Of a DNA stretch of 23,530 bases, positions 4,272-11,561 are shown one piece after another. The notes below the pieces were generated by a model, which saw nothing but the letters and a program-made list of their open reading frames with translations, made no database searches and was not told where the DNA came from. Positions within the stretch are counted from its first letter, which is position 1, and each line of letters starts with the position of its first letter. The stretch is from a virus (Duplodnaviria > Heunggongvirae > Uroviricota > Caudoviricetes). The position numbers and the translations under genes are program-made. Where the stretch lies: IMG/VR virus record IMGVR_UViG_2534681997_000007, positions 1-23,530 of that record. One strand, 5' to 3'.

Positions 4272-4492
4272 TGGCCGACGCAATGGATTTAGCACAACTG
4301 CGCGAGCAGGAAGACCGCGAACGCCACATCAGCAACGCACGCACCCGTATCGCTGCACCTTCCCGTTTTCTTTGCGAGGAATGTGACACACCAATCCCGG
4401 AAGCTCGCCGCATTGCGATTCCGGGCGTGGCTTTTTGCGTAACCTGCCAGCAAATAGCAGAGCTAAAAAACAAACACTATCGGGGGGTATAA
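4271..4492 (+). CDS. TraR/DksA-type C4 zinc-finger protein
   Basis: 73 aa; CEECDTPIPEARRIAIPGVAFCVTC (CxxC-N17-CxxC); start overlaps upstream stop (TAATG). Confidence 0.65.
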   Translation: MADAMDLAQLREQEDRERHISNARTRIAAPSRFLCEECDTPIPEARRIAIPGVAFCVTCQQIAELKNKHYRGV

Positions 4493-4493
4493 A

Positions 4494-6713
4494 TTGGCTG
4501 TTCAATTCGCTTATCCGTGGAACGTCCCACGGTCGGCAATCTCCAGCCCATACCTTACTTATGAGCAACAGCATCGTCGCGACCGTATGTTCGCGGCTTT
4601 GCTGCATGCAAAAAAGGTGCTTTCTCTCCAGCCCGACTGCGTACGGTTAGATGTTTATCGCACTGCTGCGGTGCTGGAGCAAAATCAGGGTAGTCAACGA
4701 GCCAATGCATTTTTAATCAGCTTCTGCAAAAAGGCATTGCCGCGTCTTGAACTGGTCGCAAAAAAATACGAATGCGCTGGTATCAACAGCAAGGTATCAA
4801 CCGCTGTTTTTGGAAGTCATTTTGATACTCAGCAAATGCAATATCTGTCGTCACGCATGGTTAATATGGTCGCCCAATATAACCGTCTCCCGGACATGTC
4901 GCGCGCTGATGTTGACCTGTTGGCCGCTGATATTGCTAATTTCATTCGTGGTGAACTTGCCAACATTAATGACCACGGATTCGGCGAGCTTAAAACGCTG
5001 TACACCTGGTATATTCGTGCTGGCTTTATTTCCCTCCAATTCAACGTTATCCCACCACATTGGGAGCGGGTTGAAAAAAAATATGTCGGTGCGGATGAAA
5101 TCGCACCGGCTATCGCCAAAATGTTTAACGATGGGTGGTGGCGCGGTCGTTTGCGCCGTGTTGCAGCTACGTGGCGCGAACACCTGCAAATTGCAGTCGG
5201 CAACGTCAGTAAGAAAAAAAACACTTACGCGAGTAAAAACTGCGTGACTGACTGGCGTGAACAAAAGCGCCGCACTCGTGAATTTCTCAAAGGTCTGGAT
5301 CTCGAAGACGAAGACGGCAACCGTATCAGCCTAATTGAAAAATATGATGGCTCAGTTGCTAACCCTGCGATTCGCCGCTGTGAGCTCATGACCCGCATTC
5401 GTGGGTTTGAAAACATCTGTAATGAGCTCGGTTATGTCGGTGAGTTTTACACTCTAACCGCGCCGTCAAAATATCACGCCACGACTAAAGCCGGTTACCG
5501 TAACAGCAAATGGAGCGGTGCCAGCCCGGCTGACACGCAAAACTATCTAACCGGTATCTGGGCGCGTATCCGTGCCAAACTACATCGGGAAGATGTCCGT
5601 ATTTTCGGTATTCGTGTCGCCGAGCCCCATCACGACGGCACTCCACACTGGCACATGCTGATGTTCATGCTGCCGGAAGATGTTGAATATGTTCGCTCCA
5701 TCGTCCGTAAATACGCATGGAAAGAAGACCGCCACGAACTGAAAAGCGATAAATCCAAAAAAGCACGTTTCCACGCCGAGTCCATTGACCCGGAGAAAGG
5801 CAGCGCAACCGGCTATGTTGCTAAATACATTTCAAAAAATATCGACGGTTATGCTCTCGATGGTGAAACCGATGATGAAAGCGGTGAGCTGCTGAAAGAG
5901 ACAGCCCCCGCCGTTTCAGCATGGGCTGCGCGCTGGCACATCCGTCAGTTTCAGTTTATTGGTGGTGCGCCGGTGACGGTTTACCGTGAGTTGCGTCGCC
6001 TCGCTGATACCGAAACCGCGCACGGTCTGAGCGTTGAGTTTGCCGCCGTCCATGATGCCGCCGACGCTGGTGACTGGGCTGGTTATGTTAATGCTCAAGG
6101 TGGGCCGTTTGTCCGTCGCGATGATTTACAGGTGCGCACACTGTATGAACCGCGTACCGAGCTTAATCAGTACGGTGAGGAAACGGTATGTATTAAGGGG
6201 GTCTACGATTCCTCCATAGGTGCAGGAAGCCCGATTTTAACCCGGCTCACTCAGTGGAAGATTGTTCCGAAGCGTGCTGTTGATTTGGCCGTTGACCTTC
6301 AGGACGGCAAAGCCGTCCCTCGGAGTTCTGTCAATAACTGTACGGGAAGCGAAAGCGATCCACCGGAACTCGATTTATCAAAACCCCTGAGTCGACGTGA
6401 AAGACGAGAGCTGACAAACCGACTCAGGAAGCAAAAGCCAGCAATACGGCGAAAATTCATCCACGGAACGGATGAGCAAAACGCAGCTATAGCTAAAACT
6501 ATCGACGAGATACAACTTACAACTGGCATCACAATCAGCCGGGGCGAAGCCCTGCACCTGATGGCCGGTGGTAAAAGTTGTTTTGATGACAAATGGCTAC
6601 GCGGAACATCAATGGGTGAAATATTTTCCGCTGCGCCATCACATCAGGCTAAAGCCAAGAAAATCCTTAATCGCGTTGCTGCGATGGCTGAAGCAGCAAA
6701 AACCAATACCTGA
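4494..6713 (+). CDS. A: Rolling-circle replication initiator endonuclease gpA (P2 A / 186 RepA family)
   Basis: 739-aa ORF; HUH-type motif PHHDGTPHWHMLMF and catalytic tyrosine motif TGYVAKYISKNIDGYA; ORF-track start 4494 is TTG one base after the upstream stop, first in-frame ATG is 4587, so the start is uncertain. Confidence 0.9.
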   Translation: MAVQFAYPWNVPRSAISSPYLTYEQQHRRDRMFAALLHAKKVLSLQPDCVRLDVYRTAAVLEQNQGSQRANAFLISFCKKALPRLELVAKKYECAGINSKVSTAVFGSHFDTQQMQYLSSRMVNMVAQYNRLPDMSRADVDLLAADIANFIRGELANINDHGFGELKTLYTWYIRAGFISLQFNVIPPHWERVEKKYVGADEIAPAIAKMFNDGWWRGRLRRVAATWREHLQIAVGNVSKKKNTYASKNCVTDWREQKRRTREFLKGLDLEDEDGNRISLIEKYDGSVANPAIRRCELMTRIRGFENICNELGYVGEFYTLTAPSKYHATTKAGYRNSKWSGASPADTQNYLTGIWARIRAKLHREDVRIFGIRVAEPHHDGTPHWHMLMFMLPEDVEYVRSIVRKYAWKEDRHELKSDKSKKARFHAESIDPEKGSATGYVAKYISKNIDGYALDGETDDESGELLKETAPAVSAWAARWHIRQFQFIGGAPVTVYRELRRLADTETAHGLSVEFAAVHDAADAGDWAGYVNAQGGPFVRRDDLQVRTLYEPRTELNQYGEETVCIKGVYDSSIGAGSPILTRLTQWKIVPKRAVDLAVDLQDGKAVPRSSVNNCTGSESDPPELDLSKPLSRRERRELTNRLRKQKPAIRRKFIHGTDEQNAAIAKTIDEIQLTTGITISRGEALHLMAGGKSCFDDKWLRGTSMGEIFSAAPSHQAKAKKILNRVAAMAEAAKTNT

Positions 6714-6731
6714 GTAATTCACATCCATATC

Positions 6732-6765
6732 ATGAACATACAGCAATCACCCTGTTCATTTTTTT
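6732..6765 (+). terminator. Weak terminator-like hairpin after gene A (ATGAACA-N14-TGTTCAT followed by a T7 run)
   Basis: 7-bp AT-rich stem with a large loop, then TTTTTTT; read directly. Confidence 0.3.
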
Positions 6766-6790
6766 CTTCCCATCTTTTGCCAATACGTGC

Positions 6791-6810
6791 TACTGTATAA
6801 ATATACAGTA
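6791..6810. promoter_or_regulatory. LexA box (SOS operator) TACTGTATAAATATACAGTA
   Basis: Perfect CTGT-N8-ACAG core with AT-rich spacer, one mismatch to the 20-bp consensus; 21 bp upstream of the 6831 ATG; a possible -35 TTGCCA lies at 6777-6782. Confidence 0.7.
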
Positions 6811-6830
6811 CACCCTATGGGAGGGATTTC

Positions 6831-7013
6831 ATGGTTGGCGAACATTTCAGCCGAACGCAGCAAAAGTGGGCTTGTGTGCAATTTATTGCCGAGGTATCTC
6901 TGATTGCAAACTGCAAACCAGCAGACTTAAAGCTCGCACTCACTCTCATTGCTGACCTTGCAAACAGCGAAAATAACGAAACAGAAGAAAAAATTTTTTA
7001 TAAGGTTGAATAG
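6831..7013 (+). CDS. Small ORF under the LexA box; candidate SOS-induced protein at the position where phage 186 encodes its antirepressor Tum
   Basis: 60 aa; SD GGGAGGG 7 nt upstream of ATG; no recognisable domain; much shorter than 186 Tum as I recall it. Confidence 0.4.
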   Translation: MVGEHFSRTQQKWACVQFIAEVSLIANCKPADLKLALTLIADLANSENNETEEKIFYKVE

Positions 7014-7195
7014 AAGCATGATTGAACGACTCTCTTTGCAGGTTTTTTGACAGAAGTTAATAGCTTTTTCGTTAACCAAAGAAAAGACTGATAGTACAAA
7101 CGACTAGTAGAATCATCACCATGGCAAAAAGATAGTTTATTTAACTGAAATCACTGGATTTTGATGAAGAAATAGACAGTTTTACATAATGTTTG

Positions 7196-7224
7196 TTGAT
7201 TCACCGAAGACACGAACCTATAAT
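7196..7224 (+). promoter_or_regulatory. Sigma70-type promoter TTGATT-17 bp-TATAAT upstream of the Panacea-domain gene
   Basis: Consensus -10 at 7219-7224, -35 at 7196-7201, 17-bp spacer; ~150 bp upstream of the 7373 ATG. Confidence 0.5.
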
Positions 7225-7308
7225 TCGCGCGCTACCATGCTTATCGTCATTGCTATTTACTGTTATTTGTAAGTATTGACGCTACTAGAGTAGTCAGTTA
7301 GTCTCAAA

Positions 7309-7328
7309 GTAGATGGTTATCCATCTAC
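7309..7328. promoter_or_regulatory. Perfect palindrome GTAGATGG-TTAT-CCATCTAC between promoter and Panacea gene; candidate operator or 5' UTR hairpin
   Basis: 8-bp arms with 4-bp spacer read directly. Confidence 0.4.
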
Positions 7329-7372
7329 ATAAGATGCATCGCTTTTATGCGAGGTTCATCTAAGGAGGTTTT

Positions 7373-7843
7373 ATGTACAACCCGATTTGCATCGTGAACG
7401 AATTTATCGAACGCGCTAAAAAAAACGGGGACAACCTCACCCACATGCAGGCTCAAAAGCTTCTTTATGTTGCTCATGGTTACAGCCTAGCTTTTCTTAA
7501 CGAGCCTTTGCTTGAAGAACCAGTGTGTGCGTGGAGGTACGGTCCGGTAATTCCATCGGTCTACTATGCGCTGCGCCATAATCGTTCAAACCCGATATCA
7601 GAAAAAGCATCATCAACATCGGTAGTACCGGAAAAGATAGACAGTAAAACTGCATCACTTCTGGACATGATTTACGAAACATACGGGAAGCTTTCCGGTG
7701 TTCTCTTATCTGAATTTACTCATCGCCCAGGTACTCCATGGTCACAGGCGATAGAAAAACGAGAAAACATCATCAGTGATGCCAGTATCAAAGACTATTA
7801 TTTGCGTCTAGCAAGACGAGATCCAGTTTGCAACGGATTGTAA
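7373..7843 (+). CDS. Panacea-domain (DUF4065, GepA/SocA-like) protein; candidate antitoxin or immunity component
   Basis: 156 aa; strong SD AAGGAGG 5 nt upstream; motif MQAQKLLYVAHGYSLAFLNEPLLEEPVCAWRYGPVIPSVYYAL matches the DUF4065 core as I recall it. Confidence 0.75.
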   Translation: MYNPICIVNEFIERAKKNGDNLTHMQAQKLLYVAHGYSLAFLNEPLLEEPVCAWRYGPVIPSVYYALRHNRSNPISEKASSTSVVPEKIDSKTASLLDMIYETYGKLSGVLLSEFTHRPGTPWSQAIEKRENIISDASIKDYYLRLARRDPVCNGL

Positions 7844-7860
7844 AATCAGATTATTATTGA

Positions 7861-7885
7861 CCCCGCTTAAACTGCGGGGTTTTTT
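7861..7885 (+). terminator. Intrinsic-terminator-like hairpin CCCCGC-TTAAACT-GCGGGG followed by TTTTTT, ending immediately at the start codon of the next gene
   Basis: 6-bp GC stem, 7-nt loop, 6 T; the only purine-rich SD-like element for the downstream ATG (GGGG, 7876-7879) is inside the 3' arm. Confidence 0.5.
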
Positions 7886-8482
7886 ATGTCGTCCGATAAT
7901 GAAACAATCAAAAATCTGATGAAAGAGGCTATACAGAGTCATGTTACTGATCTCTTCAAATCTCTTGATGTAGGCCCTAAACCAAAGCCGACAGAAAGAT
8001 CCTCTCCCGCCAATGATGACCCCGAAGCAAACCTTTCTGCTGAAGACAAAGCCAAAAAAGAAGAACAGGCTTTTGATTCGCCTACTGATGATGAGCACGA
8101 AGAGTTGCAAGGTCTTGCATACTGGAGTCTGGAGCACAGGCGTCGGATAGACTCTCTTACAATTCAAAAAACACAAGAAGAAATTGTACGTATCTCTTGT
8201 GAAAACGACGACCTTAGGGCTAAAACAAAGAACAACCATGCAGTTGCCCGTGGCCGTCAAATAGACAACAGACTGCGTTTACAATTAGCTGCTGCAACCT
8301 TTAAGTTCATGCAGTATTGGTGTGGTTTTGTCGCTTTCATTGTTGCTTGGTATGTATTCGCCCACTATGGCAAACCTGAAAAAGAAGTCATCATTGCACT
8401 ACTCGGAACCAGCACAATAAGTATTATTGGTTTAGTTGGTTTTGTAGTTAGCGGTTTATTTAAATCAAAAAAAGATGAATAG
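7886..8482 (+). CDS. Small membrane protein with acidic N-terminal region and two C-terminal transmembrane helices; candidate toxin/abortive-infection effector
   Basis: 198 aa; hydrophobic segments FKFMQYWCGFVAFIVAWYVFAHY and VIIALLGTSTISIIGLVGFVVSGLF; N-terminal ~130 aa rich in D/E/K; AT-rich. Confidence 0.65.
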   Translation: MSSDNETIKNLMKEAIQSHVTDLFKSLDVGPKPKPTERSSPANDDPEANLSAEDKAKKEEQAFDSPTDDEHEELQGLAYWSLEHRRRIDSLTIQKTQEEIVRISCENDDLRAKTKNNHAVARGRQIDNRLRLQLAAATFKFMQYWCGFVAFIVAWYVFAHYGKPEKEVIIALLGTSTISIIGLVGFVVSGLFKSKKDE

Positions 8483-8532
8483 CACAGCATACCTAAAACA
8501 GGCTAACCCCACTGAAGAAAAACTATTTTTTT

Positions 8533-8574
8533 GTGCCAGCAGAGTTGAACAACTCGCACCACGGGGCGTTAGTT
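8533..8574 (+). repeat. Left copy of an imperfect ~42-bp direct repeat (core GTTGAACAAC...GGCGTTAGT)
   Basis: 31 of 42 positions identical to 8938-8979, including exact 10-mer and 9-mer blocks in the same register. Confidence 0.35.
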
Positions 8575-8696
8575 CTGCCTTTCAAAGTTTCTCGATGTGT
8601 TATTGATTACACACCCGTGATGAATGGGACGTTACCTTGGCGGGTTTTATAGTGGCGCTTTGGCAGCACTAAATAAAATTCATTGAAGGCGATAAT

Positions 8697-8906
8697 ATGC
8701 ATCGACTACCGGGCGAGATTCCGCAGCACAAAACTAAAAGCATACAACTTATGGCTATCGTTCATCGTCTGCAGACGATAATGGTCAATGAGAACCTGAC
8801 TCCAGCAGAGCTAGTCGGGTGTGCAGAAATAGTCAGGGATAATTACGGCAAGCTGGATAATATCAGCAGACCGACACAATACTCACCTCCACCACGTCGG
8901 CGATAG
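8697..8906 (+). CDS. Small hypothetical ORF between the repeat copies
   Basis: 69 aa; ATG with weak SD GAAGG; no recognisable domain. Confidence 0.3.
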   Translation: MHRLPGEIPQHKTKSIQLMAIVHRLQTIMVNENLTPAELVGCAEIVRDNYGKLDNISRPTQYSPPPRRR

Positions 8907-8917
8907 CAAACGCCGTC

Positions 8918-8942
8918 AGCGCTGAAACTCGCTTTCAGTGCT
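8918..8942. other. Stem-loop AGCGCTGAAA-CTCGC-TTTCAGTGCT between convergent genes
   Basis: 10-bp stem with one G-U pair; no U-tract on either side, so not a canonical terminator. Confidence 0.35.
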
Positions 8943-8979
8943 GGCGGGGTTGAACAACGAGCTACGCGAGGCGTTAGTC
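8938..8979 (+). repeat. Right copy of the imperfect ~42-bp direct repeat; overlaps the stop codon of the HNH gene
   Basis: See left copy at 8533-8574. Confidence 0.35.
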
Positions 8980-9852
8980 GAATTTTACAGGCGACAATGG
9001 TTGTTTTAATTCTTTATCGTGGAAATGTTTGTAGCGTGGATCCTTACGAGCCTCATCGGAAAATACCGATCGATTATCTTCTATCCTAAGATGGCCCGAG
9101 TCTAATAAACGATGTAGGTCTGAAGCAAGTGCAATACCGTTTTCAACACTTGGCGCTCCGCCTGCCGCGTGGCTTAAAATGTGACACGCATCAATCGCAA
9201 AGCGAGAGCCCGTAATTGCGCAACATCCCCTCCAATTGGCTAATACGTCCTTTCTGAACCGGCCTTGAGCTTTTCGTATTTTTGTCAGCGAATAACCATC
9301 TTCAACATATGAACGCTGCTCGAATGTAGGTGATGGTTCGGTTATCTGGGGTAATTGTTGCAAACCATTCTGGTTAACCTTAAATTCTTCCCAAAGATGC
9401 TTACTAACTATTTTACCTTGGCGAGCGCACCAGTTGGTAAAATCTCTCTTTTCGTATTCATCTAAAGACGCCAGCCATTCGCGTAATTCAGAAGTGGCTA
9501 AAACATTTTGATGTAATTGACGATTTTGTGGCAGTGGTGCCAACCTCTCTTTTTTCTCGCCTCGCCGGTAAGGGGGAAGTTTCAATGTGTCCTTCATTGA
9601 AATCGTGCCAGCTGCGTTGGTTCGGACGCTGAATTGACCAGCATACTCAACTTTTTTAGCAGTTGTGGGAGTTGTTGGCTTTCTGTTATTAGCCATCCAA
9701 CGCTGTACTTGGTGCAAGACTTCACTAGCTTCCAGCCCCTTACTTATCAATTCTTTGACATATTTTTTAACCTCTTGTTTATTTGGTTGGTATTCGAATA
9801 AATACGGTGAAAGCTTTAAAATTTCTTTCATTGAAGTTTTTGTTTCAGCCAT
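8974..9852 (-). CDS. HNH-endonuclease-domain protein with ~200-aa N-terminal domain of unknown function; candidate defence nuclease
   Basis: Start at the Met of MAETKT (9852) preceded by GGGGGGA; C-terminal motif CCAITGSRFAIDACHILSHAAGGAPSVENGIALASDLHRLLDSGHLRIED, HNH_2-like as recalled; AT-rich. Confidence 0.75.
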   Translation of the reverse strand: MAETKTSMKEILKLSPYLFEYQPNKQEVKKYVKELISKGLEASEVLHQVQRWMANNRKPTTPTTAKKVEYAGQFSVRTNAAGTISMKDTLKLPPYRRGEKKERLAPLPQNRQLHQNVLATSELREWLASLDEYEKRDFTNWCARQGKIVSKHLWEEFKVNQNGLQQLPQITEPSPTFEQRSYVEDGYSLTKIRKAQGRFRKDVLANWRGCCAITGSRFAIDACHILSHAAGGAPSVENGIALASDLHRLLDSGHLRIEDNRSVFSDEARKDPRYKHFHDKELKQPLSPVKFD

Positions 9853-10028
9853 AAATCCCCCCATTTTAATTTTCTAAAAATGCACTTAATGTCATTTTTC
9901 TCAGCGTGCATTCATGGTGCATGGTTTTGCATGCGAATAATGTCTCATTTTTATGGGTGCGCCACCAGTGCTGGCGCGGATCCAGAGTAATCATGCAACT
10001 GCATTAAAACCGCCCCATAAAGCGGGCA

Positions 10029-10158: not shown

Positions 10159-10251
10159 TAAAGGATGGGATCAGTTGCACAATTTTACGGTTTCGCTTTG
10201 GCTAATATCCATATTGAGACTTTATGTTCCCCACAACAGTTGGAGGCTTTA

Positions 10252-10476
10252 ATGGATAACTATCATATTACAAAAGATGGCGATAAGTGGAAGTTGCAAA
10301 AAGAGGGCAATGATCGCCCTAGCAAGACCGCGACCACAAAGGCCGAGCTGATTAAAACAACATCTGAGTTTATGTCGAACAAAACAGGCTCGGTCAAAAT
10401 TCACAAGGAAGATGGGAAAATTCAGGAAGAACGCACTTATCAGAGAAAAGATGATCCTAAAAAGTCTAAAGGCTAA
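10252..10476 (+). CDS. Small basic protein, DUF2188-like, between cos and the portal gene
   Basis: Start at ATG 10252 (MDNYHITKDGDKWKLQKEGNDRPSK...) with SD GGAGG 5 nt upstream; ORF-track start 10165 lacks an SD. Confidence 0.55.
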   Translation: MDNYHITKDGDKWKLQKEGNDRPSKTATTKAELIKTTSEFMSNKTGSVKIHKEDGKIQEERTYQRKDDPKKSKG

Positions 10477-10514: not shown

Positions 10515-11561
10515 TTATTCCGGGTTGTCGAGTGTGTACTCTTTGAACCTGATGACCTCCATACCGAGCCAGTCGTTTACCTCCCTGAACCTATCCTGCA
10601 GGGGTGACAGCTCATTACGCACAAATACCTTTGCCACCTTCTCAACGTCACCGAGTGAACCGATATTCTCGGGCTTGCCGCCCATGAGCTGGAACGGCAC
10701 GCGGTGCGCGTCCATCAGGTCGGCGGCGCTGGCTTTCTTAATGTTGAAAAAGTCATCCTTTGTGGCGACCTCGCTCAGTGGCACGATTTTGATGCCGTCC
10801 GGTTTTCCGCCGGGGGCGTAGAAAAACAGGTTCTTAAAGTTGCCGAGTCCCTTCGAGTTACGCATCGCCTCGCGCAGCGATTCGACGTCGGTCGCACTTT
10901 GCGCCGGGTCAGTCACATACATGATGTAGCCTGCGTGCGCGCCGTTCTGATAATACTTGCGGCGGAACAGCGTCGCGGATTCATTCAGCCAAGCGGAATT
11001 AAGCGCGCTGAGATATTCCGGCAGACCGTAAATCTCCTGATTAATGTCGGGCTCCAGCAGGTGAAACACGGTATCAGGCGCGAACTCGTGCGGCTGGGTG
11101 AAGTTTTCCACAAACCAGAAAATCGAATCGTCGACTCCGCGTCGGGTGTATTTGGCTGGCGAGGCCAGCAGTTTGATTAACTGGCCGGTGACGCTGTGGC
11201 GCTGCTCAAGAAAGGCGTTACCGAATACCAGATAATCGAGCGCAAAGCGGCTGAAATCCTGACGGGATAACAACGGGTGCGGAATGTAGGTGCTCGCGAG
11301 CACGTTACGCTTAACATAAATTGGCGAGCTGTGATGCACGGCAGAGCGCAGGCTCTTTGCCAGCCCTGAGAAGCTGACCGGCGGCTCGTACCATTTGCCG
11401 TTACTGATGCACTCGACGTAATCCAGAATGTCGCGCTTATCGAGTACCGGCACCGGCTCGCCGAAGGTGAACGCTGTCGTTTTTGGCGGTGCGCTGGCGG
11501 TCAGTTGTTGTGGTTTGCTGGCCTTTTGTGCGTTGGCTTTACGGGATTTTTGTTTACCCAT
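10515..11561 (-). CDS. Q: Portal protein gpQ
   Basis: 348 aa, P2 Q-sized, basic N-terminus MGKQKSRKANAQK; position next to cos and downstream of terminase P. Confidence 0.9.
   Translation of the reverse strand: MGKQKSRKANAQKASKPQQLTASAPPKTTAFTFGEPVPVLDKRDILDYVECISNGKWYEPPVSFSGLAKSLRSAVHHSSPIYVKRNVLASTYIPHPLLSRQDFSRFALDYLVFGNAFLEQRHSVTGQLIKLLASPAKYTRRGVDDSIFWFVENFTQPHEFAPDTVFHLLEPDINQEIYGLPEYLSALNSAWLNESATLFRRKYYQNGAHAGYIMYVTDPAQSATDVESLREAMRNSKGLGNFKNLFFYAPGGKPDGIKIVPLSEVATKDDFFNIKKASAADLMDAHRVPFQLMGGKPENIGSLGDVEKVAKVFVRNELSPLQDRFREVNDWLGMEVIRFKEYTLDNPE

Follow-up and report, generated by a model that had tools for sequence, protein, structure and literature searches.

The operons of type II toxin-antitoxin systems are commonly autoregulated through palindromic operators, as was discussed in PMC10440598. 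Conditional cooperativity is part of this type of control. In the PanA-PanT pairs (Kurata et al. 2022, PMC8832971; Ernits et al. 2023, PMC10440598), the antitoxin gene comes first, HTH domains are present in only a subset of the PanA proteins (PMC8832971), and Panacea was judged unlikely to autoregulate (PMC10440598). The native control of panAT operons is described in neither of these papers. P2-like phages are known to contain a variable cargo slot, the tin/old slot, which separates gene A/tum from the portal gene and in which "moron" or lysogenic-conversion cassettes with their own promoters are swapped among phages (Rousset et al. 2022, PMC9122126).

The DNA analysed here, referred to as the window, is a stretch of 23,530 nucleotides (IMG/VR record IMGVR_UViG_2534681997_000007) and is a P2/186-like prophage. 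Its genes are arranged in the order integrase-side region, replication gene A (4494-6713, with the gpA domain PF05840), a 60-aa Tum-like ORF (6831-7013), whose DNA matches the tumA region of PSP3, cargo, and the portal gene (10515-11561 on the minus strand, identified by Pfam) with late genes beyond. In nucleotide comparisons, similarity to PSP3/SEN1-type phage DNA ends exactly at position 7014, so that all DNA between 7015 and about 10500 is regarded as cargo in the variable slot. The sequence TACTGTATAAATATACAGTA (6791-6810) is located 20 nt upstream of the Tum-like ORF and is a near-consensus LexA box. This combination suggests that the 60-aa ORF specifies an SOS-inducible antirepressor comparable to that of phage 186.

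Within the cargo, panA (7373-7843, plus strand) encodes a 156-aa antitoxin of the Panacea/SocA family without additional domain. Its start codon ATG (7373-7375) and the preceding Shine-Dalgarno (SD) sequence GGAGG (7364-7368, plus strand) are invariant in the clade to which the window belongs. The Panacea domain PF13274 spans residues 28-123 (E 1.3e-18), and the SocA model of NCBIfam covers residues 2-131. In the Pfam search only Panacea was detected and no DNA-binding domain (HTH, RHH, AbrB or other), for which a protein of 156 aa has no room. Among the described antitoxins, PanA of the window resembles the "noNTD" class, which likewise consists of Panacea only. The neighbouring gene (7886-8482, plus strand) specifies a protein of 198 aa, putative PanT, with a charged N-terminal part and two hydrophobic C-terminal segments, which matched no family. 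It resembles the membrane PanT class of PMC8832971, and a charged N-terminal part followed by C-terminal hydrophobic helices is also characteristic of the validated toxins from E. coli STEC O31 and Bartonella. The gap between the two genes is 42 nt, and the partner adjoins panA in all relatives. Judged by sequence, the two genes are a PanAT-type pair, that is, a Panacea protein with a conserved partner less than 100 nt away, with putative toxicity and neutralisation. The validated E. coli pair has a gap of 22 nt and is labelled NotPhage, in difference to the prophage-borne pair of the window.

Relatives of PanA were gathered by exact-protein and pattern look-ups, which yielded homologues from 99% to 35% identical, and the corresponding loci were fetched. 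The exact PanA protein is present on many contigs, every time in the same slot between gene A/tum and portal, and in diverged P2-like phages the pair again occupies this slot, with different neighbours. Similarity to diverged relatives starts at about 7180-7200. Comparison with one contig (L008) carrying the same pair and other downstream cargo places the 3' edge about 20 to 40 nt past the partner stop codon, and the cassette thus extends from about 7190 to about 8500. Because of these edges, the promoter described below (P1), the leader and both genes are considered one mobile unit, and since the breakpoint lies less than about 40 nt from the partner stop codon, cargo units in the slot appear to be swapped independently. 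Three contigs (L004, L006 and L008, about 4283-5166) contain the cassette followed by ORFs of 175 and 118 aa; in the window (8500-9900), a 69-aa ORF and an HNH gene are found at this place. With its own promoter, its location between gene A/tum and portal and its exchange among P2-like phages, the cassette is similar to the "moron" cassettes of the P2 hotspot (PMC9122126), but differs from them in that no terminator was detected 3' of the partner gene by the terminator scan.

The exact proteins of the cassette are annotated from E. coli and Citrobacter. Near-identical cargo DNA was not matched in complete E. coli genomes, phage records or plasmids, and 7015-8520 was not matched by Megablast in any of the 5,426 complete E. 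coli genomes from RefSeq, among which the cassette seems to be rare or absent. The cassette proteins are annotated from E. coli draft assemblies and are also carried by the 5.24-Mb chromosome CP101080.1. Twelve intergenic positions vary among near-identical copies, of which 10 are located upstream of P1 (within 7038-7184) and two (7252 and 7338) between P1 and panA. Although the numbers are small, this distribution is consistent with constraint beginning at the promoter.

The initial annotation had pointed to a promoter close to consensus in the long region upstream of panA, and this element, P1, indeed matches the sigma-70 consensus at 10 of 12 positions (TTGATT 7196-7201, 17-nt spacer, TATAAT 7219-7224, plus strand). 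It is the top site between 6500 and 9000 in a promoter scan. When the 359-nt intergenic region was shuffled with its dinucleotides kept, 11.5% of the shuffles also contained a plus-strand site with at least 10 of 12 matches, and P1 taken alone is therefore not significant, being within chance. Its conservation is more informative. In 27 of 30 distinct upstream regions, representing PanA proteins 42-100% identical, TTGnnn is followed at 17 nt by TATAAT or TATACT and a GC-rich discriminator; the spacer is always 17 nt in these 27 relatives, with unconserved sequence. A 28th region (L111), read by eye only, has the variant TTGAAA-17-TAGTAT. The promoter is found in front of PanA genes whose products share as little as 46% identity. 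Hexamers conserved around a spacer of constant length and variable sequence argue for a functional promoter, and the comparison supports P1 as a real, conserved sigma-70 promoter with a predicted start. When viral contigs were scanned for CTATAATNCGCGCGC, 68 hits were found, of which only the PanA-linked ones had the full set of a proper -35 region and a downstream TTGAC element. The possibility that the -10/GC block is a general signal of the hotspot was rejected on these grounds, and P1 is regarded as belonging to the cassette rather than to the hotspot.

The -10 region of P1 is followed by the GC-rich discriminator TCGCGCGC (7225-7232, plus strand), in which CGCGCGC is invariant in the clade of the window. 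The discriminators of all listed relatives are GC-rich, mostly nCGCGCGC, and the second base after the -10 region is C in nearly all of them. Transcription from P1 is predicted to start near 7231, which would give a leader of about 142 nt, against about 150 nt in the initial annotation. G/C-rich discriminators go along with stringent control and sensitivity to supercoiling (PMC8422995). With its conserved GC-rich discriminator, P1 is likely to form short-lived open complexes and hence to be sensitive to ppGpp/DksA as well as to relaxation of the DNA. The arrangement is reminiscent of tandem promoters of the rrn P1/P2 type (PMC8422995), which share the near-consensus -10 region, the GC-rich discriminator with C at the second position and a second promoter-like element downstream; the latter, however, is weak in the window.

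This putative second element (TTGACG 7276-7281, 17-nt spacer, TAGTCT 7299-7304, plus strand) matches only 8 of 12 positions, with 3 of 6 in the -10 region, and was not listed by the promoter scanner because it falls below its threshold. In most relatives, TTGAC[GA] is followed at 15 to 18 nt by TAnnnT with unconserved spacer sequence, and in some the element is near consensus (TTGACA-15-TATAAT in L189, TTGCCG-17-TATAAG in L110 and L112). It ends 5 nt before the palindrome. With a start 7-8 nt past its -10 region, it would give a transcript whose 5' end is at 7311-7312, within the base of the palindrome, and according to folding a hairpin of 5-6 bp would be left at the very 5' end. The distance between the end of the P1 -10 region and the second -35 region is 14-15 nt in "short" relatives and 51-64 nt in the clade of the window; in the window itself, the variable segment is located at 7233-7275 (plus strand). 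In some relatives, two to five tandem 10-nt units resembling a -35 region, for example CTATTCATGA, CTATTCATTAG and CATTGACG, are present between P1 and the second element. Arrays with a period of 10 were detected by TRF in L106 (2871-2893) and L014 (2871-2902), and none was detected by this program in the window (about 7245-7281). The units could be derived from slippage in the -35 region or could constitute a direct-repeat array bound by a protein; presumably, they resemble the direct-repeat sites of OmpR/PhoB-type regulators or of the phage proteins Cox and Apl.

The perfect 20-bp palindrome reported between promoter and ribosome binding site is located at 7309-7328 and consists of the arms GTAGATGG (7309-7316) and CCATCTAC (7321-7328) separated by TTAT (7317-7320). 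A repeat finder returned arms of 8 nt with 100% complementarity. As RNA of the plus strand, it would form hairpin 1, with a stem of 8 bp and a loop of 4 nt, a predicted energy of -12 kcal/mol and a z-score of -6.1, and this hairpin is kept when the full leader is folded. After shuffling, the 359-nt intergenic region contains a perfect 8-bp stem with a loop of 3-8 nt in 4.1% of cases, and in the whole window seven such stems are present against 2.5 +/- 1.7 expected; the palindrome alone is within chance and not significant. A chance inverted repeat without function, carried along with the cassette, would agree with this frequency and also with the absence of the hairpin from PanA relatives of 62% identity or less. 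Yet its pairing survives at least four independent double substitutions as well as several G.U intermediates while loops and flanks diverge, and a palindrome without function is thus considered very improbable.

These changes became apparent in an alignment of 10 distinct leaders from the clade in which PanA identity is 81% or more, which was fitted to the structure with a covariance model. The stem variants are GUAGAUGG/CCAUCUAC in the window and GUAGGCG/CGCCUAU, UUAGGCGA/UCGUCUAA, UAGGUAG/CUGCCUA, GUAGACGA/UCGUCU(A/G)C and GGCGA/UCGCC in relatives. In hairpin 1, both sides are changed in five of the eight pairs and 93.8% of the cells are paired. Over the structure as a whole the paired cells make up 95%, compared with 28-52% when the partners are slid by one to three columns, and the seven pairs with double changes, five in hairpin 1 and two in hairpin 2 (see below), were reached by 2 of 500 shuffles. 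One-sided changes in hairpin 1 lead to G.U and A.C in a ratio of 4:1 on the plus strand and, since they are mostly G.U, the RNA appears to be read from this strand. Loops of hairpin 1 comprise 3, 4 or 5 nt and effectively 7 nt in one leader (L013). Taken together, the comparison supports the palindrome being an RNA stem-loop in the panA leader; pairing that is kept while the sequence changes, G.U intermediates and variable loops point to such a structure and not to an operator for a dimer.

The initial annotation had offered both possibilities, a binding site for the Panacea protein or its complex and an RNA hairpin in the leader, and it is the second that is supported by covariation. An operator would be bound by a dimeric PanA, by a complex of PanA with its partner, or by a host or phage repressor, resulting in repression. 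Like the operators of type II systems, the palindrome is an inverted repeat between promoter and antitoxin gene, the symmetry of its arms is preserved in relatives, and its centre (7318.5) would correspond to about +8 of the putative transcript from the second element, a classic position for a repressor. The compensatory changes could also have arisen in an operator that evolved together with some other protein. In contrast to type II antitoxins acting on operators, however, PanA lacks a DNA-binding domain, and its partner is predicted to be a membrane protein. Substitutions in the palindrome follow the pattern of an RNA helix: the half-site sequence is unconserved, four stem positions swap the type of pair, and one-sided changes result in G.U, which is tolerated only in RNA. 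Arm spacings of 3, 4, 5 and 7 nt among PanA proteins 81-100% identical would not be tolerated by a dimer, and even a relative with PanA 95% identical (L188) has a spacing shorter by 1 nt. Hairpin 2, with only 4-6 bp too small for an operator, covaries as well. The start of hairpin 1 is 78 nt from the P1 start, which puts the centre at about +88 without overlap with P1, and the half-site does not occur above chance elsewhere in the window, including the phage switch. An operator function of the palindrome is therefore held to be unlikely.

Hairpin 1 is followed in the leader by hairpin 2 (UCGC 7339-7342 paired with GCGA 7349-7352, plus strand), in which both sides are changed in two of four pairs among the 10 leaders. 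It is enclosed by the helix AGAUG (7332-7336)/CAUCU (7357-7361) on the plus strand, which is part of the minimum free energy (MFE) or centroid folds of most variants. Together with a CUC/GAG helix reaching the SD sequence, a three-way junction would result, by which the leader could act as a translational riboregulator: the conserved GUCUC (7301-7305) would pair with the SD sequence GGAGG, and a cue such as temperature, a protein or a phage product would gate translation of PanA. The three-way fold is the MFE structure of several diverged variants and appears in the consensus fold, and within the clade, pairing in the CUC/GAG and AGAUG/CAUCU helices amounts to 98-100%. Both helices are invariant, however, so that covariation is uninformative for them, and GUCUC can just as well be accounted for by the -10/start region of the second element. 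Opening the SD sequence is predicted to cost only 3-5 kcal/mol, with or without the anti-SD segment and from either start; with this moderate accessibility, independent of the start site, sequestration by GUCUC was dropped as the main model. Furthermore, no Rfam family matches, neither at gathering scores in the window nor at E <= 10 in 7150-7372, and the pairing is unconserved in more distant relatives. Gated translation of this kind is accordingly given little credence, about as little as the operator. With the covariance model, no leader structure of this kind was recognised in relatives whose PanA is 62% identical or less, and hairpin 1 is thus regarded as specific to the clade and inessential to the family.

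Several other candidates were rejected. An intrinsic terminator or the end of a small RNA at the palindrome is not in accordance with the sequence following the stem, AUAAGAUG, which contains no U-run, and the terminator scan did not list the site. Regarding an antisense transcript, no promoter-like site was found on the minus strand in 6500-9000, and on this strand G.U would be A.C. Short ORFs that might specify a leader peptide, such as that of 11 codons beginning with ATG at 7238, are without ribosome binding site and unconserved when the alignments of relatives are read. The arms of hairpin 1 in the window hold AGAUG and CAUCU, the words of the downstream helix, but the alternative pairing thereby offered is not conserved in relatives, and the same applies to a CAUAA/UUAUG pairing over the start codon in the fold of the window.

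Between panA and its partner, a terminator-like hairpin was detected by the terminator scan (stem 7859-7881, T-run to 7885, plus strand). It has the sequence GACCCCGC-N7-GCGGGGTT and its T-run ends directly at the ATG of the partner. Like the second promoter-like element (7276-7304) and hairpin 2, it had been overlooked in the initial annotation. As a conserved signal it is stronger than the palindrome. The hairpin is kept in all 20 relatives aligned, with PanA identity down to 46%, and in a plain MAFFT alignment all 160 cells are paired, with both sides changed in five of eight pairs. A weak Trp_leader-like match was obtained from Rfam (25 bits, below threshold). GGGG, the sole purine-rich candidate from which the partner could have its SD sequence, forms the 3' arm of the stem. 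By this arrangement, transcription as well as translation of the partner would be kept below those of panA, and the presence of the hairpin before the partner gene fits a hard-wired cassette better than control by an operator.

The locus as a whole is probably best explained as a hard-wired PanAT-type cassette with a real promoter P1 and a palindrome acting as an RNA stem-loop, an explanation in which we place somewhat better than even confidence. Its expression seems to be fixed in this way, without autoregulation through an operator: control would be exerted by tandem promoter elements, leader hairpins and the internal terminator-like hairpin. The palindrome would act as RNA, as the first stem-loop of a leader containing a second, covarying hairpin, and would set the amount of PanA per transcript by shielding the 5' region of the mRNA from decay, while the terminator-like hairpin would hold expression of the toxin under that of the antitoxin. 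In E. coli, 5' stem-loops impede entry of RppH and RNase E and stabilise mRNAs (PMC3997798). A role in mRNA stability or in tuning of translation is inferred for hairpin 1, and most likely PanA output is adjusted through stability of the mRNA. With the second element firing near 7311, the stem-loop would come to lie at the 5' end of a shorter transcript, as in stabilised E. coli mRNAs. The 5' stem-loop stabilisers of ompA and papA (Emory, Bouvet and Belasco 1992, as cited in PMC3997798) would then be comparable in being short, stable 5'-UTR hairpins at the 5' terminus, conserved in structure and not in sequence. On the longer transcript, in contrast to what is reported there for ompA and papA, hairpin 1 would sit 78 nt inside the leader. 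A 5'-terminal stem would result only from a start near 7309-7312, arising from the element at 7276-7304, and protection of the 5' end becomes a weaker idea if P1 alone starts transcription, because hairpin 1 is internal in this case.

A more far-reaching role of the leader is conceivable, although it is deemed even less probable than the operator or the gated translation considered above. Tandem promoter elements, the rrn-like discriminator and the three-way junction at the SD sequence would constitute the sensor of a defence-type cassette. Loss of panA transcription or translation upon infection or stress, and not regulated proteolysis or a protein sensor, would free the membrane toxin, and the terminator-like hairpin would provide a safety margin.

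The elements described are familiar kinds of control, found here in a system whose native regulation is undescribed in PMC8832971 and PMC10440598; for this reason, the field would remain unchanged even if they were confirmed. The locus nevertheless offers a concrete picture of control for one widespread prophage-borne PanAT cassette. If confirmed, this picture would explain how a safe ratio of antitoxin to toxin is maintained although the antitoxin lacks a DNA-binding domain, and it would indicate the 180 nt that have to be taken along when such systems are cloned "with native promoter".

Apart from the cassette, the slot contains the gene for an HNH_2-domain protein (8974-9864, minus strand) and that for a DUF2188 protein (10165-10476, plus strand), for which a match to PDC-S16, a candidate defence family of PADLOC, was obtained (E 1e-14). 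Only one other plus-strand promoter site with at least 10 of 12 matches is present in the window, TTTACA-17-TATATT (2461-2489), which by its position is probably a phage early promoter of the switch region.
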